Source of the DNA: Candidatus Omnitrophota bacterium
GTDB lineage: Bacteria > Omnitrophota > Gorgyraeia > Gygaellales > Profunditerraquicolaceae
Length of the DNA stretch: 64,000 nucleotides
Assembly: GCA_042570405.1 (NCBI GenBank)
Contig: JBHPGR010000003.1
Coordinates: forward strand, 679-64,678
Reading direction: 5' to 3'
Of this stretch, positions 166-52,845 are shown piece by piece; position 1 is the stretch's first letter; every line of letters starts with the position of its first letter. Position numbers and translations under genes: made by a program. The notes under the pieces were generated by a model that ran no database searches, was not told the origin of the DNA, and saw only the letters and a program-made list of their open reading frames with translations.

Positions 166-422
166 ATCTGGTGCCCAAAATGTGCCCACCCAACACAGAA
201 ACATCCCGTAACAAACCTAAACAAAGCTAAACATCCGGACAGCGTAAGATGATGCCTTAGTTACGTTAGTTACTTACTCACTAAAATTCCTAAAAGTCCT
301 TTACCTCTAGATTTTATGAGAGTAAACTATTATATTGTCTGAACAAGAGCGTAAGCAATCTGCTGCTTTGGTGCTGGAAGCAGCAAAGAAGAAACTATGG
401 CCCAGTTTAAGAAGGAGTAACT

Positions 423-1274: not shown

Positions 1275-1490
1275 TTACATGGGGTTGCTGGATGTCTTGG
1301 TTACGTTAGTTGCCTGCTCACCCTTAGGCCCTTGCGTAACTTCAAACTCTACTTCCACGCCCTCTTCCAGAGTCTTGTAACCATCCCCCTGGATCGCGCT
1401 GTAATGCACAAAGATATCTTTGCCATCATCAGAAGTAACGAAGCCGTAACCTTTCTGATTACTGAACCACTTTACCTTACCTTTTGCCAT
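1275..1490 (-). CDS. csp: cold-shock protein, CspA family
   Basis: [27 protein letters not shown]: RNP1/RNP2 cold-shock domain motifs. Confidence 0.95.
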
Positions 1491-17682: not shown

Positions 17683-19080
17683 ATGAGCGGGATCTTTGGC
17701 GTAGTCTCCAAGGGGGATTGCAGCGAAGACCTGTTTTACGGCACGGATTACCACTCCCACCTGGGAACGCAGTTTGGCGGGCTTGGAGTCTGGACCGCAG
17801 AAGGTCTTATGCGCAAGATCCATGATATAAGGGGGAGTCAATTCAAGGCGAAGTTTTTTGAAGATTATAAGAAGATGAAGGGAAAGGCCGGCATCGGCGT
17901 TATCAGCGCAAACGAGGAGCAGCCGATGTGCGTGAATTCCAAGTTCGGGCCCTTTGCTATCGTCACCAACGGTTTTATTGAGAACGCCCAGACACTGACA
18001 AAAGAGCTTTACAGGCAGGGGCAGTCTTTCAGCGAAGTCACAGACGGAACAGTCAACCTGACCGAACTGGTGGCAAAGCTGATCACTATTGGCGCGACGA
18101 TCGCCGAGGGTATCGAGTATATGTTCTCTAAAATCGAAGGTTCATGCTCTCTTTTGCTTTTGGATAAACAGGGGATCTATGCGGCCAGGGACAGGTACGG
18201 TTATACCCCGCTGGCTGTTGGACAGAGAGGTAAGGATTGGGCGGTGACAGCTGAGACATCTGCCTTCTATAATCTGGGTTTTAAGATCAAGAAATATCTG
18301 CAGCCCGGAGAGATCCTCTTTTTGGATGGAAAGGGCCTAAAGTCCGTACGCCGCGGAGGAAAGACAAATCAGATCTGCTCATTTTTGTGGATCTACACAG
18401 GATTTCCTGCCTCATGCTATGAAGGGATGAATACGGAGTTGGCAAGGGAGAGATGCGGAAAGTGCTTGGCCAAAAATGATTTTATCAAAGCTGATATGGC
18501 AGCAGGCGTTCCGGATTCAGGGACTGCGCATGCGATCGGTTATGCCATGGGAGCGGGGATCCCATTCCGCAGGCCGCTGGTAAAATATACTCCCGGTTTT
18601 GACCGCAGCTACACTCCTCCCTCGCAGGAGACGCGCGACCGGATCGCGAAGATGAAACTGATACCGATCCGGGATATAATCAATGGAAAGAGTATCGTAA
18701 TCTGCGATGACTCCATCGTGCGAGGGACGCAGTTTAAGAGTTTCACCATTCAGAAGCTTAAAGAGTGCGGGGTCAAGGGGATGCATTTAAGGATCGCCTG
18801 TCCGCCGCTGATGTACCCTTGTAAATTTAATTACTCTACGCGCAGCATCCATGAGCTGGCAGCGCGCAAGGGCATAAAGGCGATCGAAGGGAAGGATGTT
18901 AAAGACGTCAGTCAATATATAGATGAAGATTCCGCCAAGCACAAGAAGATGGTGGATTGGATCAGGAAGGACCTGGGCGTTACAACCTTAAAATACCAGA
19001 AGCTTAAAGATATGATTAAGGCGATAGGGTTGGCAAAGGATAAATTATGCCTTTACTGCTGGACCGGGAGGGAGCCTTAA
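17683..19080 (+). CDS. purF: amidophosphoribosyltransferase homolog with a degenerate glutaminase domain (Ser in place of the Cys nucleophile)
   Basis: PRTase motifs GVPDSG and ICDDSIVRGTQ, and Fe-S Cys positions (ICSF.., PCKF, CLYCWTG). N-terminus is MSGIFGV, not MCGI. An in-frame TGA lies 15 nt upstream and AGGAGG is the RBS. Confidence 0.85.
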   Translation: MSGIFGVVSKGDCSEDLFYGTDYHSHLGTQFGGLGVWTAEGLMRKIHDIRGSQFKAKFFEDYKKMKGKAGIGVISANEEQPMCVNSKFGPFAIVTNGFIENAQTLTKELYRQGQSFSEVTDGTVNLTELVAKLITIGATIAEGIEYMFSKIEGSCSLLLLDKQGIYAARDRYGYTPLAVGQRGKDWAVTAETSAFYNLGFKIKKYLQPGEILFLDGKGLKSVRRGGKTNQICSFLWIYTGFPASCYEGMNTELARERCGKCLAKNDFIKADMAAGVPDSGTAHAIGYAMGAGIPFRRPLVKYTPGFDRSYTPPSQETRDRIAKMKLIPIRDIINGKSIVICDDSIVRGTQFKSFTIQKLKECGVKGMHLRIACPPLMYPCKFNYSTRSIHELAARKGIKAIEGKDVKDVSQYIDEDSAKHKKMVDWIRKDLGVTTLKYQKLKDMIKAIGLAKDKLCLYCWTGREP

Positions 19081-20093
19081 TGGGAAAACTTACCTATAAA
19101 GATTCAGGCGTAGACATTAAAAAGGCGACCGCCTTTAAAAAGGATATAAAAGGGGTGGTCAAAAAATCATTTAAGAAGGAGGTCTTAGGAGGGATAGGCG
19201 GCTTCGGCAGCTTTTACAGCTTTCCCAAGGATGAATACAAGGAGCCGATACTGGTCTCTTCCTCCGATGGGGTGGGAACAAAATTAAAGATCGCCTGCCT
19301 GGCCAATAAGCACGATACAGTAGGAATAGATGCTGTAGCGATGAACGTCAATGACATCCTCTGCGTGGGAGCTAAGACTCTCTTCTTTTTAGACTATATA
19401 GCCTACAGCGATCTGGATAACAATATCCTTGTCGATGTGGTCAAAGGGGTAAATGACGGATGCATCCAGGCCGATTGTTCTTTGATCGGAGGGGAGACCG
19501 CCCAGATGCCGGGATTTTACAAGGCAGGTGATTATGATGTGGCGGGTTTCTGCGTAGGCGCGGTAGACCGAAAGGATATTATCGACGGGTCTAAGATTTC
19601 TGCCAAAGATGTCGTCATAGGCCTGGAGTCAAATGGAATACACTCAAACGGCTATTCTTTAGTTAGGAGGGTATTTTCGCAGAGTGAATTAAAACGCATG
19701 AGCAGCGAATTACTTAGGCCTACCCGTATTTACGTTAAGCCGGTTCTGCAGCTTTTACGAAACAACGAGTCAACGAAACAACGAGTCAACGGAATTGCCC
19801 ACATCACAGGCGGCGCTTTTTATGACAAGATCGCCAGGATCCTGCCGGAGGATGTGAATGTCAAAATAGATAAAAGCTCATGGAAGGTGCCCGAGATCTT
19901 CCGGATCATCCAGAAAAAAGGCGATATAGAGGCTAAGGAGATGTATCACACCTTTAATATGGGGGTGGGTATGGTCTTGATCGTCAAGCCAAAATCCGCA
20001 AAGGCGATAATCTCAAGGCTTGCTGAAATGAAGCTTAAATCTTGGGTTATCGGTGAAGTTATAAAGGGCAAGGGTAAAGTAGAGGTCATATAG
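19080..20093 (+). CDS. purM: phosphoribosylformylglycinamidine cyclo-ligase (AIR synthetase)
   Basis: MGKLTYKDSGVDI.., GGFG, DGVGTK and AHITGG. Start set at ATG 19080, overlapping the purF TAA (TAATG), rather than 19047. Confidence 0.9.
   Translation: MGKLTYKDSGVDIKKATAFKKDIKGVVKKSFKKEVLGGIGGFGSFYSFPKDEYKEPILVSSSDGVGTKLKIACLANKHDTVGIDAVAMNVNDILCVGAKTLFFLDYIAYSDLDNNILVDVVKGVNDGCIQADCSLIGGETAQMPGFYKAGDYDVAGFCVGAVDRKDIIDGSKISAKDVVIGLESNGIHSNGYSLVRRVFSQSELKRMSSELLRPTRIYVKPVLQLLRNNESTKQRVNGIAHITGGAFYDKIARILPEDVNVKIDKSSWKVPEIFRIIQKKGDIEAKEMYHTFNMGVGMVLIVKPKSAKAIISRLAEMKLKSWVIGEVIKGKGKVEVI
19757..19788 (+). repeat. perfect 16-nt tandem duplication (ACGAAACAACGAGTCA x2) inside purM
   Basis: Read directly. 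Encodes ..RNNESTKQRVN.. in a loop longer than in remembered PurM sequences. Confidence 0.8.
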
Positions 20094-20097
20094 TAAA

Positions 20098-20317
20098 ATG
20101 AATCTGTCGGTTTTCTCGCTCGGGGTCGGTTTTTTAACGCCAATGATCTTTCGCATTTCGGTGGCTGCTGAACTCGCACTTCGCGCCTCTTGCGCTCCGT
20201 GCTCAAACAGCATCGCCATCCCAAGATTGCCCCGTCGTAGGCGGGGCCTTGGGATTCCCTCAATGCTCAAGCTCCATTGGCTAAAACCGACACTCGCTCG
20301 AAAACTGCCAGATCCAT
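20098..20317 (+). repeat. family A foldback element, copy A1
   Basis: Termini ATGAATCTGTCGGTTTTCTCGCTC .. CGCTCGAAAACTGCCAGATCCAT are inverted repeats. The ends are homologous to copies at 26578-26801 and 36091-36298. Confidence 0.85.
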
Positions 20318-20330
20318 TTTTATTTATGTT

Positions 20331-20502
20331 TTAGCGGGCGGCTTGGCTGTTTTTGAGCGGGGCGTCCGAGGATGCCGAGCGGGCATGGTTCACCCGCTAA
20401 TATGTGTCGGTGAGAGCGAGGCACCGCAGGCGAGTGCAGTTTTGCCTCGCAGGGGCAAAACAAACGTCCCCGCGAGAAAATAGCCAAGACAGGACCCGCT
20501 AA
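20331..20502. repeat. family B inverted-repeat element, copy B1
   Basis: Termini TTAGCGGGCGGCTTGGCTG .. TAGCCAAGACAGGACCCGCTAA. Same terminal design as 32963-33035. Confidence 0.75.
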
Positions 20503-20519
20503 AACGAGGCTTAAAACTT

Positions 20520-21809
20520 ATGAGAATATTAGTTATCGGATCTGGGGGTAGGGAGCACGCGTTAGTCTGGAAGATCGCGCAGTCGAAGTTGGCTGATAAG
20601 ATCTTTTGCGCGCCCGGCAACGCGGGGATTGCAGAGCTTGCAGAGTGTGTTGATATTAAAGCCGATGATATCCCCCGGCTTCTGGATTTTGCCAGAAGGG
20701 AAAAAATCGATTTGACTGTAGTCGGCCCGGAGATCCCTCTGACCATGGGCATAGTCGATGAATTTACCAAGCGGGGTTTGAAGATATTCGGCCCGAACAA
20801 GAAGGCAGCGCAATTAGAGGGTAGTAAGGTTTTCTCCAAAGAACTGATGGCAAAATATAAAGTGCCCACCGCCGCCTTTAAGATCTTTGATCTGCCTGTT
20901 GAGGCCAATGATTATATTGATAAAATCGGCGCCCCTTGCGTAGTTAAAGCAGATGGTTTAGCAGCCGGCAAAGGCGTAGTGGTAGCAAAGACTGTTGATC
21001 AGGCCAAACAGGCGGTAAATTCGATGATGAAGGATAAGATCTTCGGTGAGGCCGGCAATAGGGTGATCATCGAAGAGTGCCTTGAAGGGGAGGAGGCATC
21101 GATTATCGTATTGACCGATTCAAGGGAGGTCATACCTTTAGCCTCAAGCCAGGATCACAAACGCGTCTTTGATAACGATCAAGGGCCGAATACCGGCGGT
21201 ATGGGTGCTTATTCGCCTGCTCCGGTTGTGAATCCCGGATTATTCAAAGAGATAAATGAGAAAGTAGTAGATCGCACAATCGATGGCCTGGCAAAGGAGG
21301 GCATAGAGTTTAGAGGTGTTTTGTATGCCGGGATCATGATCACCAAAGACGGCCCTAAGGCCCTGGAATTTAATGTCCGCTTCGGGGATCCGGAGACTCA
21401 GGCGATCCTTCCGCGCCTGAAATCAGACCTTTTGGAAGCGATGCTGGCAACCAGTGAAGCTAAATTAGGTAAAGTTGTTAAAGCCGGCGGGCTTAGCTGG
21501 TATGAGCAGGCGTGTGTCTGCGTAGTCTGTGCCTCGGGGGGGTATCCAGGAAGGTATGAGAAGGGTAAGGGAATATCCGGCCTGGACGAGGTATCCAAGA
21601 GTAGAGAGATCGCCGTATTTCACTCCGGGACTAAAAGTGAGGATGATAAGATCGTGACTGCCGGCGGGCGGGTATTGGGTGTGACCGGCTTAGGCGCTTC
21701 TATAAAAGAGGCGATCGATAATACTTATCAGGCGGTAACAAAGATCAGTTTCGAAGGGATGCATTATCGTAAGGACATCGGATATAAAGTATTATCAAGA
21801 CGACAGTAA
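20520..21809 (+). CDS. purD: phosphoribosylamine-glycine ligase
   Basis: MRILVIGSGGREHAL.WK.., ATP-grasp, KADGLAAGKGV. Confidence 0.95.
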   Translation: MRILVIGSGGREHALVWKIAQSKLADKIFCAPGNAGIAELAECVDIKADDIPRLLDFARREKIDLTVVGPEIPLTMGIVDEFTKRGLKIFGPNKKAAQLEGSKVFSKELMAKYKVPTAAFKIFDLPVEANDYIDKIGAPCVVKADGLAAGKGVVVAKTVDQAKQAVNSMMKDKIFGEAGNRVIIEECLEGEEASIIVLTDSREVIPLASSQDHKRVFDNDQGPNTGGMGAYSPAPVVNPGLFKEINEKVVDRTIDGLAKEGIEFRGVLYAGIMITKDGPKALEFNVRFGDPETQAILPRLKSDLLEAMLATSEAKLGKVVKAGGLSWYEQACVCVVCASGGYPGRYEKGKGISGLDEVSKSREIAVFHSGTKSEDDKIVTAGGRVLGVTGLGASIKEAIDNTYQAVTKISFEGMHYRKDIGYKVLSRRQ

Positions 21810-21955
21810 AAATTCTAAATCCTAAATTCGAAATTCTAAACAAATCTGAAATCCCAAACTCTAAACTTAAAACTAAATGTTTAGAATTTATGATTTAGCG
21901 CTTAGAATTTGTTTAGTATTTAGATATTAGAATTTAGTATTTAAGCTTAAGAGGG
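21810..21955. repeat. AT-rich imperfect palindrome built from TTCTAAA/TTTAGAA units
   Basis: About 145 bp of low-GC spacer. The left half is rich in (A)TTCTAAA and the right half in TTTAGAA(T). Centre is near 21885. Confidence 0.5.
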
Positions 21956-26158: not shown

Positions 26159-26569
26159 ATGGTCGAGATGGAATTAAATAAGATCGTGATCGACGAGAAG
26201 AGGCATGACCAACTGATCGTATTGAAGGAGAAGGACGGGAATCGGATCCTGCCCATCGTGATCGGATTAAATGAAGCCTCCGCGATAAAATTAAAGATCA
26301 GCGGTTTTAACCCTCCGCGCCCATTGACCCACGATCTTATACACTCTATGGTCCAGAATCTGGAGGCAGAGGTGCAGAAGGTGATTATTGATAAGCTGGA
26401 AGAGAATACCTTCCATGCCAAGTTAGTCCTAAAGACCGAATCGGGTAAGACTAAGATCGTCGATGCCCGCCCCTCCGACAGCATCGCCCTTTCCGTCAGG
26501 GCGCATGCGCCGATATTCGTGGAAGATAAGATCCTCAAGCAGTCAGAGGTATTTAATCAGGAAAAATGA
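26159..26569 (+). CDS. bifunctional nuclease domain protein (DUF151/BFN)
   Basis: PRPLTHDL and DARPSDSIALSVR..PIFV motifs. Confidence 0.75.
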   Translation: MVEMELNKIVIDEKRHDQLIVLKEKDGNRILPIVIGLNEASAIKLKISGFNPPRPLTHDLIHSMVQNLEAEVQKVIIDKLEENTFHAKLVLKTESGKTKIVDARPSDSIALSVRAHAPIFVEDKILKQSEVFNQEK

Positions 26570-26577
26570 GCAAATAA

Positions 26578-26801
26578 ATGAATCCGGCGTTCTTCGAGCG
26601 AATGTCGATTTTAGCCAAAGCATGCTTGAGCAATCGAGGGCATCCGAACGCGGAAGCATTCGGATGACGAGCATGTTTGAGCCCGTCCTGGCGAAGCCGA
26701 CGGGCGAGTTGCGCAGGAGCCGAGATTGCGAAAGACCTTTGGCGCCCGCCACGATTCATGGCGGGAAAATCGACCCTGAGCGAGAAGAATGACGGATTTA
26801 T
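26578..26801 (-). repeat. family A foldback element, copy A2 (inverted relative to A1/A3)
   Basis: The reverse complement aligns with 36091-36298 over most of its length. Termini ATGAATCCGGCG.. / ..GACGGATTTAT. Confidence 0.85.
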
Positions 26802-26819: not shown

Positions 26820-28268
26820 ATGAGTGGCATAGCGTTAAAAGAAAAAGATATATTAAGGAAAGTTTATCGCTTAGCCAGGCAGCGCAGGGTGAAGCTGTAT
26901 CTTGTCGGCGGTTACCTGCGTGATGCGCTGCTGAAAAGAGAGAAGGATGATCCTGATATCGATTTCTGTATAAAAAGGGGCGCGGTAAAGTTTGGCAGGT
27001 CCATCCGCAGACAGGTCAAGGCCGGTTTTGTGGTCCTGGACCAAGAGCATGGCTGTTGCCGGTTAGTCAAAAAGCTTAAGGGAAAGGTTTGCACCTTAGA
27101 CTTTACGGATTTCCGCGGCAAGACCCTTGACCAGGACCTCCTGCACCGTGATTTTACGATCAACGCCATGGCGGCGGAGTTAGGGGGGGTATTGAAGGAT
27201 GTTCCGGCGGGGGATATCTTTATCGATCCCTGCGCAGGCCAGAAGGACTTAAAGGCAAAACTGATCAGGGCAGCAAACAAGAAGAGCTTTGACGAGGATC
27301 CCTTAAGGATCCTGCGTGCTTTTAGTCTTGCGGCGATTTTTGGTTTTAAAATAGATAAAGAAACGCTTCGCCTGATCAAGCTAAAGAAGAAGAAATTGTC
27401 CCGTGTCTCCGGCGAACGTCTCCGTGATGAGCTCTTTAAGATATTAGACAGGCCGGATGCCTTCAAATATCTTTTGCAATTGGATCAGTTGCGTATTTTA
27501 AGTATCTTACTTCCTGAGATAGACCGGATGCGGGGAGTAAGCCAGGGCCCATACCACCACCTTGACGTCTGGAAACATACATTAGAGAGTGTCCGGCAGC
27601 TTGAGATCCTCTTCAGGGAGCGCGGAAGGAATAAGGATATCCGGGATTATCTTAATCAAAGTATTTCGGCAGGGAGATCGCGCCGCGCCCTGATCAAATT
27701 AGGGGCATTATTGCATGATATCGGAAAGCCCCGGGCAAAGCGAAGACGTAAGGGTAAGACTATATTTCACGGGCATGAGCGGATCGGTCTTAAGCTCTCT
27801 GAGGATATCGCCAGGAGGCTTAAGCTTTCAAATGACGAGCGGGAGGCCCTGAGAAAGATGGTCTTATGGCATTTAAGGCCGGGATATCTTGCCGATAACG
27901 AGACTTTAACTGCCAGGGCGAGATTCCGCTACTTCCGCGATACCGCAGGAGAAGGCGTGAGTACTCTTTTGTTATCGATTGCAGACCAGCGCGCCACCAG
28001 AGGAAGGTTGACTACCAGCTCGTCCAGGGTGCATCATGAAGAGACTGTCCTCTCCTTGATCAGGGAGTATTTCAGGAGGAGCAGAGAGAAGAAATTGCCG
28101 CGCCTGATCAACGGGGATCAGCTGATCAGAAGGTTTAGGCTATCGCCTTCTCCTATTATAGGGAAGATCTTATCCGGGATCGAAGAGCTGCAGGCTATAG
28201 GAAAGATCAAGACCAGGGCCCAGGCCTTAAAGGCTGCAGCTATACTGGTAAAGAAGTCTGTGGTATAA
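26820..28268 (+). CDS. cca: CCA-adding enzyme / poly(A) polymerase family nucleotidyltransferase with HD domain
   Basis: LVGGYLRD..L, DIDF, RDFTINAM, and LHDIGKP HD motif. Confidence 0.8.
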   Translation: MSGIALKEKDILRKVYRLARQRRVKLYLVGGYLRDALLKREKDDPDIDFCIKRGAVKFGRSIRRQVKAGFVVLDQEHGCCRLVKKLKGKVCTLDFTDFRGKTLDQDLLHRDFTINAMAAELGGVLKDVPAGDIFIDPCAGQKDLKAKLIRAANKKSFDEDPLRILRAFSLAAIFGFKIDKETLRLIKLKKKKLSRVSGERLRDELFKILDRPDAFKYLLQLDQLRILSILLPEIDRMRGVSQGPYHHLDVWKHTLESVRQLEILFRERGRNKDIRDYLNQSISAGRSRRALIKLGALLHDIGKPRAKRRRKGKTIFHGHERIGLKLSEDIARRLKLSNDEREALRKMVLWHLRPGYLADNETLTARARFRYFRDTAGEGVSTLLLSIADQRATRGRLTTSSSRVHHEETVLSLIREYFRRSREKKLPRLINGDQLIRRFRLSPSPIIGKILSGIEELQAIGKIKTRAQALKAAAILVKKSVV

Positions 28269-32482: not shown

Positions 32483-32538
32483 TTAATTCGCACCTATAAC
32501 TTACTCACGTTCACGCGCTCGTAAGTTATGTGCTCATT
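32483..32538 (+). repeat. family C motif, copy C1 (AATTCGCA box + ATAACTTAC/GTAAGTTAT hairpin + GTGCTCATT)
   Basis: Read directly. Ends 3 nt before ATG 32542. Confidence 0.8.
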
Positions 32539-32541
32539 AAA

Positions 32542-32958: not shown

Positions 32959-32962
32959 AGAA

Positions 32963-33035
32963 TTAGGGGGTGGCTTGGACTGGATTTCGAGCTGCGTAAT
33001 GCAGCGAGAAAACAGTCCAAGACAGGACCCCCTAA
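32963..33035. repeat. family B inverted-repeat element, short copy B2
   Basis: TTAGGGGGTGGCTTGGACTG .. CAGTCCAAGACAGGACCCCCTAA with inner hairpin GCTGC-GTAAT-GCAGC. Confidence 0.75.
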
Positions 33036-33062
33036 TTATTAGTATTATAAGGGAGAGTTTTA

Positions 33063-34010
33063 GTGAAAATAAATGATACCGAGATAAAGATTATTCAGGG
33101 GGATATCACTACGCTTAAGGTGGATGCGATCGTCAACGCCGCTAATAATAAATTGCTTATGGGCGCAGGGGTCGCCGCAGCGATCAAAAAGAAGGGCGGC
33201 AAGACAATTGAAGACGAAGCAGTGAAGAAGGGCCCGATAAAGATAGGCGCAGCCGTCTTCAGTTCAGCCGGAAGTCTTCCCGCCAAATACGTGATCCATG
33301 CCGCGACTATGGGGATGGATTTTAAGACTGACGATATTAAAGTCCGTGACTCCTGCAGGAGCTCTTTAAGGGTCGCCGAAGAATTAAAGATAAGATCAAT
33401 CGCCTTCCCTGCTTTAGGCTGCGGCGTAGGCGGTTTTCCTCTGCTTGCGGCTGCAAAGATCATGGCCCAGGAGGTACTCAGATATGTCAGAGAGAAGAAG
33501 ACCGGTCTTAAGGAGGTAGTCTTCTGCCTCTTCAATAAGAAGGCCTTTGATGTCTTTGATCACGGCGTGATTGATTACCTTGATTATATAACCCATAAAC
33601 TCCAGGGTGGGCCTTTTATTACCGTCGATGTGATAATCGAGATAGATGACTCCATAGTCTTGATCGAAAGAAGCAACCCTCCCTTTGGCTGGGCGCTTCC
33701 CGGAGGCTTTGTCGATTATGGCGAGAGCTTAGAGGATGCAGTGAGGCGCGAGGCGAAGGAGGAGACGGGGCTTGAATTGCAGGGCCTAAAGCAGTTTCAT
33801 ACTTATTCAGAGCCTGACCGTGATCCGCGCTTCCACACTGTCGGGACCGTCTTTGTCGCTAAGGCCGAGGGTAAGCCAAAGGCGGGGGATGATGCTGCGG
33901 GATTAAAGGTAGTGACATCAAGCGAACTTGCGAAGCTTAAGTTTCCCTTTGACCACAAAAAAGTTATCCAGGATTATTTGCGATATAAAGAAGGCAAGAA
34001 CCCCTTTTAG
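33063..34010 (+). CDS. fusion: macro domain (ADP-ribose binding/hydrolase) + Nudix hydrolase
   Basis: GDITTLKVDAIVNAANN.L..G.GVA.AI macro motif, and C-terminal Nudix box GGFVDYGESLEDAVRREAKEETGL. GTG start. Confidence 0.85.
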   Translation: MKINDTEIKIIQGDITTLKVDAIVNAANNKLLMGAGVAAAIKKKGGKTIEDEAVKKGPIKIGAAVFSSAGSLPAKYVIHAATMGMDFKTDDIKVRDSCRSSLRVAEELKIRSIAFPALGCGVGGFPLLAAAKIMAQEVLRYVREKKTGLKEVVFCLFNKKAFDVFDHGVIDYLDYITHKLQGGPFITVDVIIEIDDSIVLIERSNPPFGWALPGGFVDYGESLEDAVRREAKEETGLELQGLKQFHTYSEPDRDPRFHTVGTVFVAKAEGKPKAGDDAAGLKVVTSSELAKLKFPFDHKKVIQDYLRYKEGKNPF

Positions 34011-35884
34011 GGTTCGCGTAACTGATTCTCCGCATCGACAATATCACGCTTTATTCCACGGATAGTCTCTCTGATCCGCTCCCTTAGGGCAGATGAAGCT
34101 ACCCTGCTCTTATTGATCTCCCGTAAGATCTGCATCCCCATCCGAAAATATCGTACCACTCCTCCTTCGTCTGTATCGGTGAGTTTCAGGATCTTATCAA
34201 AGTCTGTTCCGCGCAGCCACGCTTCTGTGCAGGAGCTTAGATGAAAGTATGGTTTCTTGCTGATTGGGTAGATCCGGTATCTGATCTCCTTTTGTTTTAT
34301 CTGTTTATAAACTTCTTCAGTGACATCTTTTATCTTACGCGCTGCTTCAGAGAGGCGCAATAGGTGCTGGTTCTTACGCGGTTCGAAGACTACCGCGCTG
34401 GCTAAGATCCCCAGCCCGGATTCATCCAGCTCTTCCAGGATATTTCTCGCGTATAGTTCAGAGAGGATCAGTTCATAGCCGTAGACGCTCTTTGCGAATT
34501 GTCCCTTTTTCGTCAGCTCTGAGCCTTTTATATAGCCCCAATCCTTAAGCAGCTTCAGCTTCGCTTCGATCAGCCTGCGTGCCTCCTTCTGCTGGTATTT
34601 CTTATACTGGAAGTAGTGCAGGGAGAGCGGGTAGATCTTAAAGAGGTCTTCTTTGTGTTTTTCATAGAGGTTGAGTATAGTAGCATATGAGGTGTTAAAC
34701 TGGCTCCTTACTTCTTCCGGCCTGCCGTAGATGATACGCTTTACTTCATGGAGCCTTGTTTTGTACAGATTCACCCGGCAGTAGACAAAACCCTCTTTAT
34801 CGATCCCGCGCCTTCCTGCGCGGCCTGCCATCTGGTAGAAGTCGCGCGTTTTAAGGTTACTTACGTAGCGGCCGTAAAATTTCCTTAAGCTATCAAAGAT
34901 CACCGAGCGGCTGGGCATATTGATCCCCAGGGCAAAGGTTTCCGTGGTAAAGATCACCTTCAGGAGGCGGCTGGTGAAGAGCCTCTCGATCACCTCTTTC
35001 AGGGTGGGGAGCATCCCAGCATGGTGATAGGCGATGCCTCTTTTGATCAGGGGATAAATATTGGACGCAGTTTTATCGCCCTTTAGGTCAAAGCGCTCAC
35101 AGAGAGAGTCGTAGAGGGAAGTTATCTTCTGGCGCTCAAGATCATTTAAGAAGTCATGCCCGTAAAGCTCAAAGGCCATGTCTTCGGCGCGCTTACGGCT
35201 AAAGACAAAATATATACAGGGGAGGCCGTCTTTCTTGCGGATGTAGTTTATCAGTGGCTGCAGCTTGTTGGGGCGTCCGTGTCTTAATTTTTTCAGATTA
35301 TCGATTTTGTCCAGTACCTCGTTCTGCCACTGAAAGAAGAAGTGCAGCGGCACCGGCCTTTCATTCTCGATCACCGTCTTCATCGGTTTATCATGGATAG
35401 ACTCCATCCATCGCGCGAACTCCTTTATATTAGGGATCGTAGCCGAAAGCGAGAGCATCTTCATGTGTTTGGGAAGGAAGATCAACGATTCCTCCCAGAC
35501 CGTGCCGCGCTCTTCATTGTCTATATAGTGGATCTCGTCAAAGATCACCCATTGGTATTGCTTAAGGCTATCCGGTTCATCAAGGATCTTGTTGCGGAAG
35601 ATCTCAGTGGTCATGATCAGCACCGGCGCCTGGGCATTCAGGGAGACATCGCCGGTTAGGATTCCGATCTTATCCTGGAATTGCAGTTGGAAATCGCGGA
35701 ACTTCTGGTTGGAGAGCGCCTTGACGGGGGCGGTGTATACTACACCTACGTTATCCCGCAGGCATTCTTTTATCACATGCTCGGCGATAACGGTCTTTCC
35801 GGCCCCGGTGGGAGCCGAGACGATCACCGAACTGCCCTGGTTGATGTGGTCGATCGCTTCTTGTTGAAAACGGTCGTAGATCAT
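34007..35884 (-). CDS. Ski2-like superfamily-2 RNA helicase (DEAD/DEAH box)
   Basis: APTGAGKT, FDEIHY, SAT, HHAGMLP and QMAGRAGRRG. The C-terminal domain resembles Ski2/Mtr4/HelY-type. Confidence 0.85.
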   Translation of the reverse strand: MIYDRFQQEAIDHINQGSSVIVSAPTGAGKTVIAEHVIKECLRDNVGVVYTAPVKALSNQKFRDFQLQFQDKIGILTGDVSLNAQAPVLIMTTEIFRNKILDEPDSLKQYQWVIFDEIHYIDNEERGTVWEESLIFLPKHMKMLSLSATIPNIKEFARWMESIHDKPMKTVIENERPVPLHFFFQWQNEVLDKIDNLKKLRHGRPNKLQPLINYIRKKDGLPCIYFVFSRKRAEDMAFELYGHDFLNDLERQKITSLYDSLCERFDLKGDKTASNIYPLIKRGIAYHHAGMLPTLKEVIERLFTSRLLKVIFTTETFALGINMPSRSVIFDSLRKFYGRYVSNLKTRDFYQMAGRAGRRGIDKEGFVYCRVNLYKTRLHEVKRIIYGRPEEVRSQFNTSYATILNLYEKHKEDLFKIYPLSLHYFQYKKYQQKEARRLIEAKLKLLKDWGYIKGSELTKKGQFAKSVYGYELILSELYARNILEELDESGLGILASAVVFEPRKNQHLLRLSEAARKIKDVTEEVYKQIKQKEIRYRIYPISKKPYFHLSSCTEAWLRGTDFDKILKLTDTDEGGVVRYFRMGMQILREINKSRVASSALRERIRETIRGIKRDIVDAENQLREP

Positions 35885-36090: not shown

Positions 36091-36298
36091 ATGAATCTAG
36101 CGGTTTTCTCGCTCAAGTCGGTTTTTTAACGCCAAAGTTCTTGCGCTCGCTCGGCTCCTGCGCAACTCGCCCGTCGGGCTTCGCCCAGGACGGGCTCAAA
36201 CATGCTCGTCGTCCGAATACTTCCGTATTCGGATTCCCTCGCTTGCTCAAGCATGCTTTGGCTAAAACCTCCATTCGCTCGAAAACCGCCAGATTCAT
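36091..36298 (+). repeat. family A foldback element, copy A3
   Basis: ATGAATCTAGCGGTTTTCTCGCTC .. CGCTCGAAAACCGCCAGATTCAT. Confidence 0.85.
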
Positions 36299-36321: not shown

Positions 36322-36873
36322 ATGGGTTACAAGGTGGCATTGGATAAGGCGTGGGAGCAGTTGAATGGCCTGGGCCTGAAGGGGCAAGAGCAGGTAAGGT
36401 TCCTGGCTGACGAATACAGCGTTGATCCGCAGGCGCGCCAGGTCCTTTCATTATCCTGTAATGCCTTGGCAAAGGAGTACAGCGCGATCCTGATCCTGCA
36501 TTACCTTGCGCAAAAGCTTAAGGGGCTGCCTGCGCTGACTAATCAATGGGCCTCTTTTAAGGAACTTTTCCGGATAGAGGGGTATGCTGCGGCCTTCAGG
36601 AAGCGCTCGATCGAGCCGATCATCAGAAAGTACGGCAGTAATCCGCAGGGGCTCCTGGATGTCTTGGATAGATTACCCGCAAAAAGGGTTGACCAGGCAG
36701 ACATAGGTATTATTATAGATGTATTTACAGGGGTTCCGACCCTGGTTGAGCTTTGGCGCGGCGACGAAGAGTTCGCTGCGGAAGCGAATATCCTTTTTGA
36801 TAAGAGCGTAAATAAGATATTCAATGCAGAGGATCTCGCTGTCCTGGCCAGCTTTATCGCCAGCCAGCTGTAA
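36322..36873 (+). CDS. DUF3786-like protein
   Basis: MGYKVALDKAWEQL.. N-terminus and overall pattern recalled from the DUF3786 family. Start moved from 36202 because the first 40 codons read through repeat A3. Confidence 0.55.
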   Translation: MGYKVALDKAWEQLNGLGLKGQEQVRFLADEYSVDPQARQVLSLSCNALAKEYSAILILHYLAQKLKGLPALTNQWASFKELFRIEGYAAAFRKRSIEPIIRKYGSNPQGLLDVLDRLPAKRVDQADIGIIIDVFTGVPTLVELWRGDEEFAAEANILFDKSVNKIFNAEDLAVLASFIASQL

Positions 36874-47509: not shown

Positions 47510-47612
47510 AGAGTAAGGGTTTACCGAGAAGGGCAAACCCTGGGAAATCAGGGGACGCAAAGCTACGGGTCTAAAGGTGGGTTTTCCTTTGTGATTGCCG
47601 GGCTGCCGAAGA
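47510..47612 (+). promoter_or_regulatory. c-di-GMP-I (GEMM-I) riboswitch aptamer
   Basis: GGGCAAACCCUGGGAAAUCAGGGGACGCAAAGCUACGGGUCUAA..CCGGGCUGCCGA matches the remembered GEMM-I core (GGCAAACC, GAAA tetraloop hairpin, GACGCAAAGC, GG.CUAA, closing CCGG..CCGA). Confidence 0.8.
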
Positions 47613-47626
47613 ACCTATCTAAGATC

Positions 47627-47674
47627 GCCGAGTTGCCGAAGAATCTAAAATGGCTTGCTCGGCTTTTATATTTT
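47627..47674 (+). terminator. riboswitch expression-platform terminator
   Basis: GCCGAG..CTCGGC stem with an inner GCC/GGC extension, followed by TTTTATATTTT. TGCCGAAGAA is duplicated between the aptamer 3' side and the terminator 5' side. Confidence 0.65.
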
Positions 47675-47696
47675 ACAGAGTTTTAAGGAGCGGGAT

Positions 47697-49331
47697 GTGA
47701 AAAAGCTCAAACTAAAGGATCTTAATCTGGATTCAAAGGATATCATCAAGAATATCGGCGCAGGCCTCTGTCTTTTAGACAGAAACTACCAGATCATCTG
47801 GATCAACCAGCACCTGACTGACTGGATGGGCCCGCTTGAAAAGCTGCGCGGCATGCATTGCTATAAGGCATTTGAACGCCGTCCAAAGATCTGCCCGGGG
47901 TGCCCCACGCGCAAGGTATTTAAGGGCGGACAGATCCAGAACGGAAAGTTGAGGATCGCCTATACCAAAGAAGGCCAGAAGCGGTATTTTCAGCTGGTCG
48001 TAAGCCCGGTCAAGGATGGTTCCGGCAGGGTAAAGTATGCCTTAGAGCTTGTTCAGGATATCACCGAGCGCGTGCTGCGTGAGAGGCGCAAGCGCCTGCT
48101 TGGCCGCAGAATAAAGAAGGCGCAGGGGAATTTTTCCGCAGTGAACAGAAGGCTGCGCCGGAACCTGCGCCGGGTAAGGAGCATCGTCAACAGGATCCTG
48201 CAGTCACAGCTCGCCCTTAAAAAAAGATACCGTAAGAGTAAGTCTGAAGCCGTGAATATGAAGAGGGAGCTGCAGGATATCTTGAAGATAAACCGCGCCT
48301 TAAGTTCATCCTTAAGCTCAAAGAAGATAACTTGTATGATCACTAAGTTTACCTGCGAGCTGATGCATACCGATGCCTGTAACCTGAGACTGCTCAATGA
48401 GGATAAGGATATGCTGTTACTGGAGTCAAGTCACGGCCTAAGCGAATCCTACGCCAGGAGGGCGAGAGTGGTCAAGTTATCCGATTCGATAGTAGGAGAA
48501 GCAGTAAAGAACAGGCGGCCGGTGATCTTCGATGATATATATAAGAAGAAGGCGAGGCTGAAGTTTAAGAAGCTGATGAAGGACCAGGGTTTCAGGTCCG
48601 GCCTTTGCGTGCCGGTGGTATTCCAGCGCAGAGTCCTGGGTACGATCTCGGCATATTCCCGCAAGACCCATGTCTTCAGCGATGACGAGGTCGAGATATT
48701 AAGCATCTTTGCTTCGCAGGTCGCGGTAGCGATCCAGGAGTCGCGCCACTACGACGCTATTCATATGAATTATTTTAATACCATCCATACCCTGGCACTT
48801 GCCCTAGAATCCCGGGATCTCTACACTCGCGGCCACACAGAAAGGGTCACCCGTTACGCCCTGCGGATCGGCCGGACCTTACAGATCCCGGAGCTGGACA
48901 TGGAGATTCTGCGTTATGCCGCCCAGGTACACGATATCGGAAAGATCAGTGTGCCTGACTCCATCCTGAACAAGCCGGGGAAGCTCACTCCCGCAGAGAG
49001 GGCGATAATCGAATTGCACCCGGTAAAGGGCGCTGAGGTGATTGAACCACTAACCTTTTTAAAGCCGGCGATACCGATCGTACGCCACCACCATGAAAGA
49101 TACGACGGTACCGGCTACCCCGACGGTTTAAGCAGGGAGAATATCCCGCTATTGTCCAGAATACTTGCCTGTGCCGATGCATTTGATGCGATGACCTCTG
49201 AGCGTCCGTACCGTAAGAAGATGACCATCGAAGAGGCCTTAGATGAGATGAAGCACAATATCGGCTCTCAATTTGACCCAAAGATATCCCGCTTGTTCGT
49301 AAAGAGCATTGAAGCGCAACTCCCCGCATAA
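47697..49331 (+). CDS. PAS-GAF-HD-GYP domain protein (c-di-GMP phosphodiesterase type)
   Basis: HDIGK and HHERYDGTGYPDGL. GTG 47697 lies 6 nt after AAGGAG. ORF-track start 47655 lies inside the terminator. Confidence 0.85.
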   Translation: MKKLKLKDLNLDSKDIIKNIGAGLCLLDRNYQIIWINQHLTDWMGPLEKLRGMHCYKAFERRPKICPGCPTRKVFKGGQIQNGKLRIAYTKEGQKRYFQLVVSPVKDGSGRVKYALELVQDITERVLRERRKRLLGRRIKKAQGNFSAVNRRLRRNLRRVRSIVNRILQSQLALKKRYRKSKSEAVNMKRELQDILKINRALSSSLSSKKITCMITKFTCELMHTDACNLRLLNEDKDMLLLESSHGLSESYARRARVVKLSDSIVGEAVKNRRPVIFDDIYKKKARLKFKKLMKDQGFRSGLCVPVVFQRRVLGTISAYSRKTHVFSDDEVEILSIFASQVAVAIQESRHYDAIHMNYFNTIHTLALALESRDLYTRGHTERVTRYALRIGRTLQIPELDMEILRYAAQVHDIGKISVPDSILNKPGKLTPAERAIIELHPVKGAEVIEPLTFLKPAIPIVRHHHERYDGTGYPDGLSRENIPLLSRILACADAFDAMTSERPYRKKMTIEEALDEMKHNIGSQFDPKISRLFVKSIEAQLPA

Positions 49332-52104: not shown

Positions 52105-52789
52105 AGATAAATTCCGCGTCCGCTCTTTAAAGAAGAGTTACGCAGGCCATGCAGAGAAGCTTGAGGTACTCAAAGGCATCGATTTAAGCGTCAGCACGGG
52201 CGAATTTCTCGCTATTCAGGGTCCCTCGGGCGCCGGGAAATCTACGCTTCTGCATATCCTGGGCGGGCTAGACCGCCCTGACAGCGGCGAGGTCTTATTG
52301 GAAGGGCAGGATATTTTCGCCTTAAGTGAGGGCGCGCGTACGCAATTTAGAAGCAGTAAGATCGGTTTTATATTTCAGTTTTATCATCTTCTTCCCGAGT
52401 TGAATGTTTTGGAGAACGTAGCTTTGCCGGGAGTTTTGCGCTCCTGGCGCGACAGGAAAAAGGTAAGAAGCGCAGCAGGCGCGATTTTGGATACCCTGGG
52501 TTTATCCGGACGCATAGATCATCTGCCAAATCAATTATCCGGAGGCGAGCAGCAGCGCGCAGCCATTGCAAGGGCCTTGATAAATAAACCGCAGCTCTTG
52601 CTCTGCGATGAGCCCACGGGAAATCTAGATTCGCAAAACGGCAGGAAGATCATTGATCTCCTGCAGCGGGTAAATAAGAAAGAGAAGATGACCATGGTGA
52701 TGGTGACCCACGACCGGGATATCGCCCAAGCTGCTGACAGGGTGATACACCTGAAGGACGGCAGCATATTTAATCAATTCGCACAATAG
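52097..52789 (+). CDS. lolD: lipoprotein-releasing ABC ATPase LolD
   Basis: GPSGAGKST, LSGGEQQR and LLLCDEPTGNLD. Confidence 0.9.
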   Translation: MSEDKFRVRSLKKSYAGHAEKLEVLKGIDLSVSTGEFLAIQGPSGAGKSTLLHILGGLDRPDSGEVLLEGQDIFALSEGARTQFRSSKIGFIFQFYHLLPELNVLENVALPGVLRSWRDRKKVRSAAGAILDTLGLSGRIDHLPNQLSGGEQQRAAIARALINKPQLLLCDEPTGNLDSQNGRKIIDLLQRVNKKEKMTMVMVTHDRDIAQAADRVIHLKDGSIFNQFAQ

Positions 52790-52828
52790 CTTACTCACAC
52801 TTACGTGTTCGTAAGTTATGTGCTCATT
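52771..52828 (+). repeat. family C motif, copy C3 (overlaps the lolD 3' end, upstream of ilvE)
   Basis: TAATCAATTCGCA..TAGCTTACTCAC..TCGTAAGTTATGTGCTCATT. The last 20 nt are identical to C1. Confidence 0.8.
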
Positions 52829-52845
52829 GAAGGAGGGGTAAGAAG

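Follow-up and report, generated by a model that had tools for sequence, protein, structure and literature searches.

Several families of short bacterial repeats and recombination sites share features with the element described here, termed family A. The REP, BIME and REPIN sequences of the Proteobacteria, which occur together with RAYT transposases, are multi-copy repeats that lie outside genes, form hairpins and are placed at 3′ gene ends within operons. Similar to family A, they occur in inverted pairs, cause no target duplication, contain no enzyme within the element and are homogeneous within a genome. A REP, however, is a simple palindrome of 20–40 nt, whereas family A spans 205–250 nt and contains a three-way junction, putative tandem G.A loops and GNRA caps. 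The Omnitrophota elements also belong to another host phylum and lack the GTAG motif, their pairs can enclose a gene, and no RAYT has been identified for them.

The attC site of integrons is likewise defined by a single-strand fold with covarying arms and not by its sequence. The recombinogenic strand of attC is antisense to the upstream ORF and the site abuts or overlaps the stop codon, an arrangement comparable to that of family A. Integron cassettes typically hold one promoterless, highly variable gene, often of defence or unknown function, and the enzyme is encoded elsewhere, which again has its parallel here. In contrast, attC sites measure 57–141 bp, contain an invariant AAC/GTT, lie in direct orientation and form arrays beside intI/attI. 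The Omnitrophota ends are 180–250 bp long, inverted and scattered in housekeeping operons, and AAC/GTT is not conserved. Approximately half of the copies terminate in GAAC/GTTC, while the others carry GAATC/GATTC, GCCTC/GAGGC or GCCCC/GGGGC.

The pdif (Xer) modules of Acinetobacter plasmids and the MITE-bounded units TIME-COMP and IMU carry one or a few accessory genes between inverted, short non-coding sites, in varied contexts and with the enzymes provided in trans. The pdif sites are 28-bp duplex XerC/XerD sites and the MITE composites have conserved terminal inverted repeats (TIRs) and target-site duplications (TSDs), and neither has the large strand-specific fold of family A. The Correia (NEMIS), ERIC, RUP and BOX repeats are dispersed sequences of 100–200 bp with inverted ends, are co-transcribed and can fold as RNA. 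Unlike family A, they have conserved TIRs, with a TA duplication in the case of Correia, and little evidence of multi-helix covariation. Neither fixed pairing with a second family nor bracketing of cassettes is a feature of these repeats.

The window, i.e. the whole stretch of DNA that was analysed, comprises 64,000 nt of a contig from a Candidatus Omnitrophota bacterium. The original prediction placed three copies of a family A element within it (A1 to A3, Table 1), and both their positions and their orientations are confirmed by full-length alignment and by covariance model (CM) scores of 175–212 bits. Model R1 was built from 52 family members and finds no match better than E = 0.4 in the rest of the 64 kb, so the window holds exactly three copies. 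The end sequences quoted in that prediction are correct, the ends being complementary across ~17–20 nt. A2 and A3 had been described as close and A1 as different, in agreement with ~89% identity between A2 and A3 across alignable blocks and with the departure of A1 mainly in two internal hairpins.

Table 1. Elements of families A and B in the window and the genes that surround the copies of family A (positions in the window, in nt; the strand of an A copy is its folding strand)
Feature	Positions	Strand	Evidence	Context
A1 (family A)	20098–20317	−	CM R1 211.8 bits, R2 204.9 bits on minus	4 nt past the purM stop, between purM and purD; left half of an A-B module
A2 (family A)	26578–26801	+	CM R1 175.2 bits, R2 179.8 bits on plus	Gene order NrdR, BFN/DUF151 nuclease, A2, CCA-adding/poly(A) polymerase-type gene
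A3 (family A)	36091–36298	−	CM R1 193.3 bits, R2 190.9 bits on minus	Gene order Ski2-like helicase, A3, DUF3786, SNase-like gene
B1 (family B)	20328–20512	+	nhmmer, alignment	Partner of A1; ~185 nt
Miniature B-type element	32961–33037	+	Sequence and fold of 32959–33062	
purM	19047–20093		Pfam	Upstream of A1
purD	20520–21809		Pfam	Downstream of A1
BFN/DUF151 nuclease	26159–26569		Pfam	Upstream of A2
CCA-adding/poly(A) polymerase-type gene	26820–28268		Pfam	Downstream of A2
Ski2-like DEAD/DSHCT helicase	34007–35884	−	Pfam	Beside A3
DUF3786	36322–36873		Pfam	Beside A3

Pfam assignments also uphold the gene context first proposed, with A1 following purM, A2 following the DUF151 nuclease gene and A3 between the divergent helicase and DUF3786 genes. 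A2, a copy with an optional extra hairpin, lies 8 nt from the stop codon of the nuclease gene and 18 nt ahead of the start of the CCA-adding enzyme gene. The start codons on the two sides of A3 are at 35884 (helicase) and 36322 (DUF3786), and neither A2 nor A3 has a recognised partner element. No transposase, integrase or reverse transcriptase was detected among the 57 of 63 window ORFs that were scanned, consistent with the absence of a transposase noted previously. All of the 57 are ordinary housekeeping genes (Rnf, purine synthesis, FtsH, enolase, SHMT, DprA, TopA, ClpB, Mla and others). A coding element was considered and rejected: A1 contains an ORF of 78 aa, but A3 stops after 12 codons and the indels between copies are not multiples of three.

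Conservation of the family has sharp boundaries at (A)ATGAAY...RTTCAT(T). In the orientation in which the element was first described (the original orientation), its two ends form a closing helix, P1, of 17 pairs, and the base of P1 is the previously reported ‘TIR’. P1 is followed by a symmetric internal loop, TCGCTC/TCGCTC, and by helix P2, GTCGATTTT/AAAATCGAC, after which some copies contain the extra hairpin. Next are helix P3, GCCAAWG/CWTTGGC, and helix P4, which is broken by a TC/TC loop; beyond it, two variable hairpins emerge from a three-way junction. Conservation peaks in the junction strands and internal loops and is lower at the termini. The earlier view of the outer ends as the well-conserved part is corrected accordingly by the family-wide comparison, in which conservation is highest in the interior junction strands.

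All 17 pairs of P1 show double-sided changes somewhere in the family. The covarying end variants include ATGCCTCTG/CAGAGGCAT, ACGAAACTA/TAGTTTCGT, ACGAAACTAATGG/CCATTAGTTTCGT and CTAACCCTG/CAGGGTTAG, and the pairing of P1 frequently runs on into otherwise unrelated flanks. RNAalifold predicts 49 pairs from 52 copies, 31 of them with compensatory changes; one five-pair helix in this prediction is mostly G.U and is not trusted. In an alignment of 103 copies fitted to the folding-strand model, 95.6% of cells form standard pairs and in 34 of the 52 modelled pairs both partners change (664 cells). Covariation reaches a score of 0.374 compared with 0.140 for column-shuffled alignments (0 of 500 reach the observed value) and at most 0.064 with the partners slid, numbers which overstate significance because the copies are related by descent and the counts are not independent events. 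A conserved secondary structure in family A is strongly supported.

The strand under selection for this structure is the opposite of the one first described, as indicated by folding energy, an excess of G.U pairs, GNRA loops and tandem G.A loops. The reverse of the original orientation is the more stable strand in 79 of 79 copies, with a mean minimum free energy (MFE) of −104.1 kcal/mol compared with −90.9 kcal/mol under RNA parameters. DNA parameters give the same preference in all 79 copies (−59.3 vs −52.6), and for A1 alone the values are −102.0 on the reverse strand and −95.5 on the strand first described. The folding strand has 122 G.U against 43 A.C combinations, and its mismatches are purine-purine in 138 cases and pyrimidine-pyrimidine in 25. 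Many of the variable hairpins end in loops that read GUAA, GGAA, GAAA or GCAA on this strand, sequences of the GNRA type, and UUAC, UUCC, UUUC or UUGC on the other. The conserved internal loops become GAGCGA/GAGCGA and CUU-GA-GCAUU/AAUGC-GA-AAG, both of which, judging by their sequence, could form tandem G.A pairs around G-C pairs. The strands assigned to A1, A2 and A3 in Table 1 follow from this reversal.

The copies are closely fitted to gene ends. By a crude ORF caller (greedy longest-ORF rule), the 5′ end in the original orientation is within 30 nt of an upstream stop codon in 36 of 50 copies, and within 3 nt in 16 of 50. The TAA or TGA of the element itself often doubles as the stop codon of the upstream gene. 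The neighbours are unrelated housekeeping genes. Among copies between co-directional genes, 39 have a folding strand that runs antisense to the genes on either side and ~11 a sense one (~78% antisense), and anchored flank profiles contain no conserved promoter-like block or hexamers on either side. An ordinary RNA gene is doubtful for these two reasons.

A 24-base pattern from the conserved 3′ part was searched in a database of one genome per species (185,579 species, 596 Gb). It matched 93 stretches, every one in a Candidatus Omnitrophota metagenome-assembled or single-amplified genome (MAG or SAG), and the similarity is therefore far beyond chance. Some of these Omnitrophota records are labelled “uncultured Planctomycetales”. 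The matches come from 48 assemblies, with up to 13 copies per MAG, and the covariance model adds copies that lack the exact pattern. In total, 99 full copies of A were recovered from all fetched DNA, i.e. the 48 Omnitrophota assemblies and related metagenome contigs; sampling was seeded by the exact pattern and by one purM-centred scan, with tiles of up to 8 kb. The search for further copies that had been suggested at the outset thus yielded a family of approximately 100 full copies, in Omnitrophota only as far as sampled. A phage origin was rejected, as neither the A pattern nor the corresponding B pattern has a match in 2.9 million viral contigs. Look-ups of proteins identical to the window BFN and purM products, made for strain-level polymorphism, returned no records.

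No family of Rfam 15 matches any copy at its gathering threshold, and E-value scans of each copy gave the same outcome; across the window, the only hits at gathering thresholds are a c-di-GMP-I-GGC riboswitch and two tRNAs. The nearest approach is a weak full-length alignment of the A1 folding strand to Clostridiales-1 RNA (RF01699), with a common UGAGC-hairpin-GCGA core. The score of 24.9 bits is below the gathering threshold of 48, A2 and A3 have no match at E ≤ 10 and the host taxa differ, so membership was rejected. A guide-RNA scaffold of the IS200/IS605 TnpB/IscB type was rejected as well, there being no Rfam match of the IS605-orfB/HEARO type and no tnpB, iscB or tnpA neighbours. To our knowledge, the 5′ and 3′ ends of IS605-orfB/HEARO-type RNAs are not paired with each other, unlike those of family A. 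No description linking such elements to Omnitrophota was found in the full-text literature searched. Family A is a previously undescribed, discrete, non-coding element of 205–250 bp, restricted to Omnitrophota as far as sampled.

Where a genome has several copies, each of them is usually closest to a paralogue from that genome, at 92–99.5% identity. For 15 pairs of close copies, mostly from the same genome (94–99.5%), the flanks are unrelated right up to ATGAA...TTCAT; examples are L018 and L039 (99.5%), L050 and L093 (99%) and L023 and L038 (94%). No consistent direct repeat that could represent a target-site duplication is found in the flanks of these pairs. The only recurring flank positions are an A at −1 and a T at +1, both of which extend the stem. 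A possible partial repeat of the purM 3′ end was seen at one locus (L141) and not at the others.

A metagenome scan with the window purM retrieved 80 related loci at 68–78% protein identity. Empty sites, proposed earlier as a test of mobility, are found at orthologous junctions, and at least 13 related contigs have no insert between purM and purD, which overlap there in ATGA. Filled junctions contain A right at the stop codon, A and B, A and B with a gene between them, B in either orientation, or other repeat families. Empty and filled states are interleaved among purM sequences that are 84–96% identical, so turnover at this junction is fast. In one locus (L128), a B element is nested in an A element and separates its 5′ and 3′ arms, and another (L041) holds an internally deleted miniature of A. 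Some junctions are occupied in up to nine species. The orthologous copies at these junctions are no more than 69–86% alike and are closer to their same-genome paralogues, which suggests re-insertion or gene conversion. At gene junctions, element A is gained by duplication and lost again as a precisely bounded unit, without target duplication.

A1 is one half of a two-element module, and its partner, the family B copy B1, which takes up the 200 nt from A1 to purD, was missed in the original prediction. B1 stands head-to-head with the folding strand of A1 and ends 8 nt ahead of the purD start codon, and its MFE is −90.0 on the plus strand and −85.3 on the reverse. In the first set of loci, nhmmer detects 26 relatives of B. 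The plus strand of the family is the more stable in 22 of 24 copies, and in 18 of 25 cases this folding strand has the same sense as the gene that follows. The closing arms of B, YUGGCNGUUUUYGAGCG ... GCGAGAAAAYNGCCAR, are homologous to the arms of A as read on the A folding strand, and consequently the 3′ arm of A is complementary to the 5′ arm of B. The miniature B-type element in the window is reduced to the closing helix and the GAGC...GCGAG loop, with a short hairpin as cap. It is located 3 nt past the UPF0047 stop and 25 nt ahead of a Macro/NUDIX gene, and its fold (32959–33062) has an energy of −46.5 kcal/mol (z = −7.8; 0 of 200 shuffles as stable).

A third family, B′, is represented at ~25 loci. 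A partner of type B or B′ lies within 1.3 kb of 45 of the 99 full A copies, while 54, including A2 and A3, have no recognised partner. The pairs are diverging, with folding strands pointing apart, for 42 of the 45 partnered copies, and none is converging. Of these diverging pairs, 34 are adjacent (≤150 nt) and 8 have a gene between them. The enclosed gene begins 20–35 nt after A, stops within ~35 nt of B and is invariably read in the direction from A to B. Mostly there is one gene, with up to four, and the cargo differs between genomes. Membership of the integron attC class was rejected on the absence of invariant triplets, the inverted arrangement of the flanking elements (42 of 45) and the lack of an integrase among the scanned window ORFs. 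The resemblance to a parvovirus-like terminal-hairpin replicon is a geometric analogy only, no replication protein being present in the cargo.

The junction between an amidohydrolase gene and the gene for MTA phosphorylase (MTAP) illustrates these states. It may be empty, with 83 nt between the genes, contain A beside a cargo-less B-like element, or contain A and B around a gene. In the last state, three unrelated genes are found at this one syntenic junction, encoding an Mrr-like nuclease (PDC-M58A), an AbiJ-NTD4 protein (PDC-S32, 387 bits) and an unknown protein. By sequence match, the first two are candidate members of phage-defence families. Homologues of the AbiJ-like protein (71–77% identity) also occur at the amidohydrolase-MTAP junction between two diverging B′ elements, and at the RuvB-QueH junction in a four-gene insert bracketed by B and B or B′, again diverging.

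The explanation that best accommodates these results, at a probability of about 0.5, is that the elements are strand-specifically folded, non-autonomous ends that are moved by a factor acting in trans. The ends would be recognised in a folded and single-stranded form, as ssDNA or RNA, by a factor encoded elsewhere, most likely a structure-specific transposase or recombinase. This factor would transfer lone elements, A-B pairs and A-gene-B cassettes to the junctions between genes. Insertion into operons could be tolerated because the closing helix joins the ends of the insert and these ends carry stop codons (TAA, TGA). The geometry of the A-B module would make the folding strands the two strands that end 3′ at its outer boundaries, which fits recognition on resected or displaced single strands, or outward transcription from the insert. 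Neither a mobilising enzyme nor an excised or circular intermediate has been seen, and the mobilisation step is purely inferred. The number of A copies that lack a recognised partner is a further difficulty, as are the copies syntenic in up to nine species, which also fit a retained host function. Loops of the GNRA type and G.U wobbles are hallmarks of RNA, yet the folding strand of A is mostly antisense and lacks a conserved promoter.

It is possible, although doubtful, that A, B and B′ form the ends of a system for cassette mobilisation in Omnitrophota that has not been described before. Accessory genes, such as the AbiJ-like and Mrr-like candidate defence genes, would be held singly between inverted elements of ~200 nt that act as folded single strands. 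A structure-specific enzyme encoded elsewhere would deliver them precisely into the stop/start junctions of housekeeping operons. Such a system would be a functional counterpart to integron cassettes or pdif modules, with recognition sites of another type.

The main rival to mobilisation in trans is a host-functional structured RNA in operon transcripts, which is considered somewhat unlikely. The elements would here be cis-acting parts of polycistronic mRNA, or small RNA genes, spread by duplication or gene conversion and not by transposition. They could serve, for example, as processing or stability sites, as insulators or terminators around acquired genes, or as devices for stop-to-start translational coupling. 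The extensive covariation and the junction strands conserved across 48 assemblies are in keeping with such a role, as are the restriction of GNRA loops and G.U excess to one strand and the occupation of the same junction in up to nine species. Homogenisation within genomes is compatible with gene conversion, and the fit to stop and start codons is tight, both for A2 (8 and 18 nt) and for B1 (8 nt before the purD start). The folding strand of B is sense to the downstream gene in the majority of cases (18 of 25), but that of A is antisense in 39 and sense in ~11, with no conserved promoter-like block. Also against such a role, the neighbours are unrelated housekeeping genes that suggest no regulon, and many related genomes do well with an empty junction and overlapping genes. 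No Rfam family reaches its threshold, and both the nesting and the sharp unit boundaries of 99%-identical paralogues look like insertion. Of the two alternatives offered by the original prediction, MITE-like or structured RNA, the mobility of the one and the structure of the other are borne out, while family A is not a classical MITE and not simply an RNA gene either.

A more specific version of mobilisation in trans, improbable in itself, likens the elements to REP/REPIN sequences, i.e. ssDNA hairpins moved by a single-copy domesticated HUH transposase (Y1, RAYT-type) encoded elsewhere. The extragenic, hairpin-forming, multi-copy nature of the elements agrees with this, as do the missing TSD and cis-encoded enzyme (no protein is linked in cis to the copies in the fetched loci) and the homogeneity within genomes. 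The inverted two-unit modules recall REPIN/BIME organisation and the strand preference holds under DNA energy parameters (79 of 79 copies). However, units of ~200 nt with a multi-helix junction contrast with a REP of 20–40 nt, the alignments contain no conserved GTAG-type 5′ tetranucleotide, and no RAYT gene is found in the window (57 of 63 ORFs scanned) or beside copies in the fetched tiles. We know of no hairpin-binding transposase that requires such variety of GNRA type together with conserved junction strands. It is quite improbable that A and B act as portable homology arms of 200 bp, with the enclosed gene swapped by homologous recombination after natural transformation. The variety of cargo enclosed by the same A and B at a single syntenic junction, the DprA gene in the window and the 70–90% conservation of the elements between species would suit this, although identity of 70–90% makes a poor substrate for RecA-dependent exchange. 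The dispersal of solo copies with exact boundaries, the strand-specific structural selection and the fixed inverted geometry are left unexplained by it. A classical MITE, an internally deleted derivative of a TIR-bearing insertion sequence that is cut and pasted by a DDE transposase binding the ATGAAYC repeats, is very improbable. Family A does resemble one in being small, non-coding, multi-copy and dispersed, with terminal inverted repeats and empty sites. It is disfavoured by the lack of a consistent direct repeat around fresh paralogues, by termini that vary and covary where TIR sequence would be conserved, and by an interior more conserved than the ends. The asymmetry of the fold between strands has no role in the recognition of dsDNA TIRs. 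The autonomous element with the same ends that was to be sought did not emerge: 173 loci and the window (57 of 63 ORFs scanned) contain no split matches of the 5′ and 3′ arms and no recurrent transposase, the fetched loci (~1 Mb) contain no longer element with the same ends, and no transposase neighbours were found.

Omnitrophota is an abundant, mostly uncultured phylum of very small bacteria, and we know of no non-coding element recorded for it in Rfam. With ~100 aligned copies and strong covariation, family A is a ready-made candidate for a new structured nucleic-acid class. If the pairing with B and B′ and the bracketing of genes hold up, they would show how accessory and defence genes enter operon junctions in compact genomes, and would hint at a hitherto undescribed enzyme whose target is a large folded site. 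Annotation of the elements would also clean up the annotation of Omnitrophota MAGs. The elements generate spurious ORFs, and assemblies are broken at them.

The purM-purD junction of the window holds, beside A1 (the copy of the folded non-coding family A that follows the purM stop codon), a second structured repeat of a family termed B. The purD start lies 8 nt past the end of this B copy, and a Shine-Dalgarno-like GAGG is located just 3′ of its closing helix. At least 26 relatives of the element were found in Omnitrophota loci, and a match for family B is absent from Rfam. At the same junction of several related contigs there is a short repeat based on the near-palindrome GGGACTGTCCCC; this exact motif was not found in the window.

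B′, the third of these related families, was found in approximately 25 loci altogether. It is absent from the window. B′ and A form inverted pairs of the same geometry as the A-B pairs. At locus L128 (3518-3765), a reverse-oriented B element separates the 5′ arm of one A element from its 3′ arm, a nested insertion of B within A at the apex of the outer helix of A.

Reduced copies are known for both A and B. The B miniature of the window has lost everything except the closing helix plus the GAGC...GCGAG loop, and a short hairpin forms the cap. Its minimum free energy (MFE) is -46.5 kcal/mol (z = -7.8). The internally deleted A copy is reduced to the closing helix, the second helix (P2) and the internal loop, which suggests that what persistence requires is the outer helix.

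Coordinates of the repeats and other features in the window and in related loci (L numbers)
Feature	Location	Strand	Details
B, ~185 nt	window 20328-20512	+	directly 3′ of A1
B miniature, 77 nt	window 32961-33037	+	between UPF0047 and Macro/NUDIX genes
B′, ~180 nt	L006 6402-6579; L177 2161-2500 and 3665-3934		TTTTAG...GGAGCG...CTAAAA
A with internal deletion, 110 nt	L041 3593-3702		
GGGACTGTCCCC repeat	L108, L109, L112, L114, L121, L149, L157, L173		directly after purM stop
c-di-GMP-I-GGC riboswitch aptamer	window 47523-47611	+	69.1 bits, above Rfam threshold
46-nt repeat, two copies	window 32496-32541 and 52786-52831		85% identical
AT-rich inverted repeat	window 21810-21910		just 3′ of purD
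31-nt direct repeat	window 251-281 and 1291-1321		84% identical

At locus L175 (2384-2500 and 3359-3612), an AbiJ-like gene has a complete tRNA gene next to it on one side and a duplicate of the tRNA 3′ half on the other. This locus is a tRNA-targeted island and contains no A or B elements.

The c-di-GMP-I-GGC aptamer is positioned 44 nt 5′ of a PAS-GAF-HD(HD_5) gene (window 47655-49331). Both copies of the 46-nt repeat are intergenic and include the hairpin ATAACTTAC...GTAAGTTAT; this family has no relation to A or B. The AT-rich inverted repeat has 33-nt arms, 82% complementary and separated by 35 nt, and is composed of TTCTAAAT-like units. The 31-nt direct repeat, which includes GTTACGTTAGTT, is found near a cold-shock protein gene and 5′ of tRNA-Thr.
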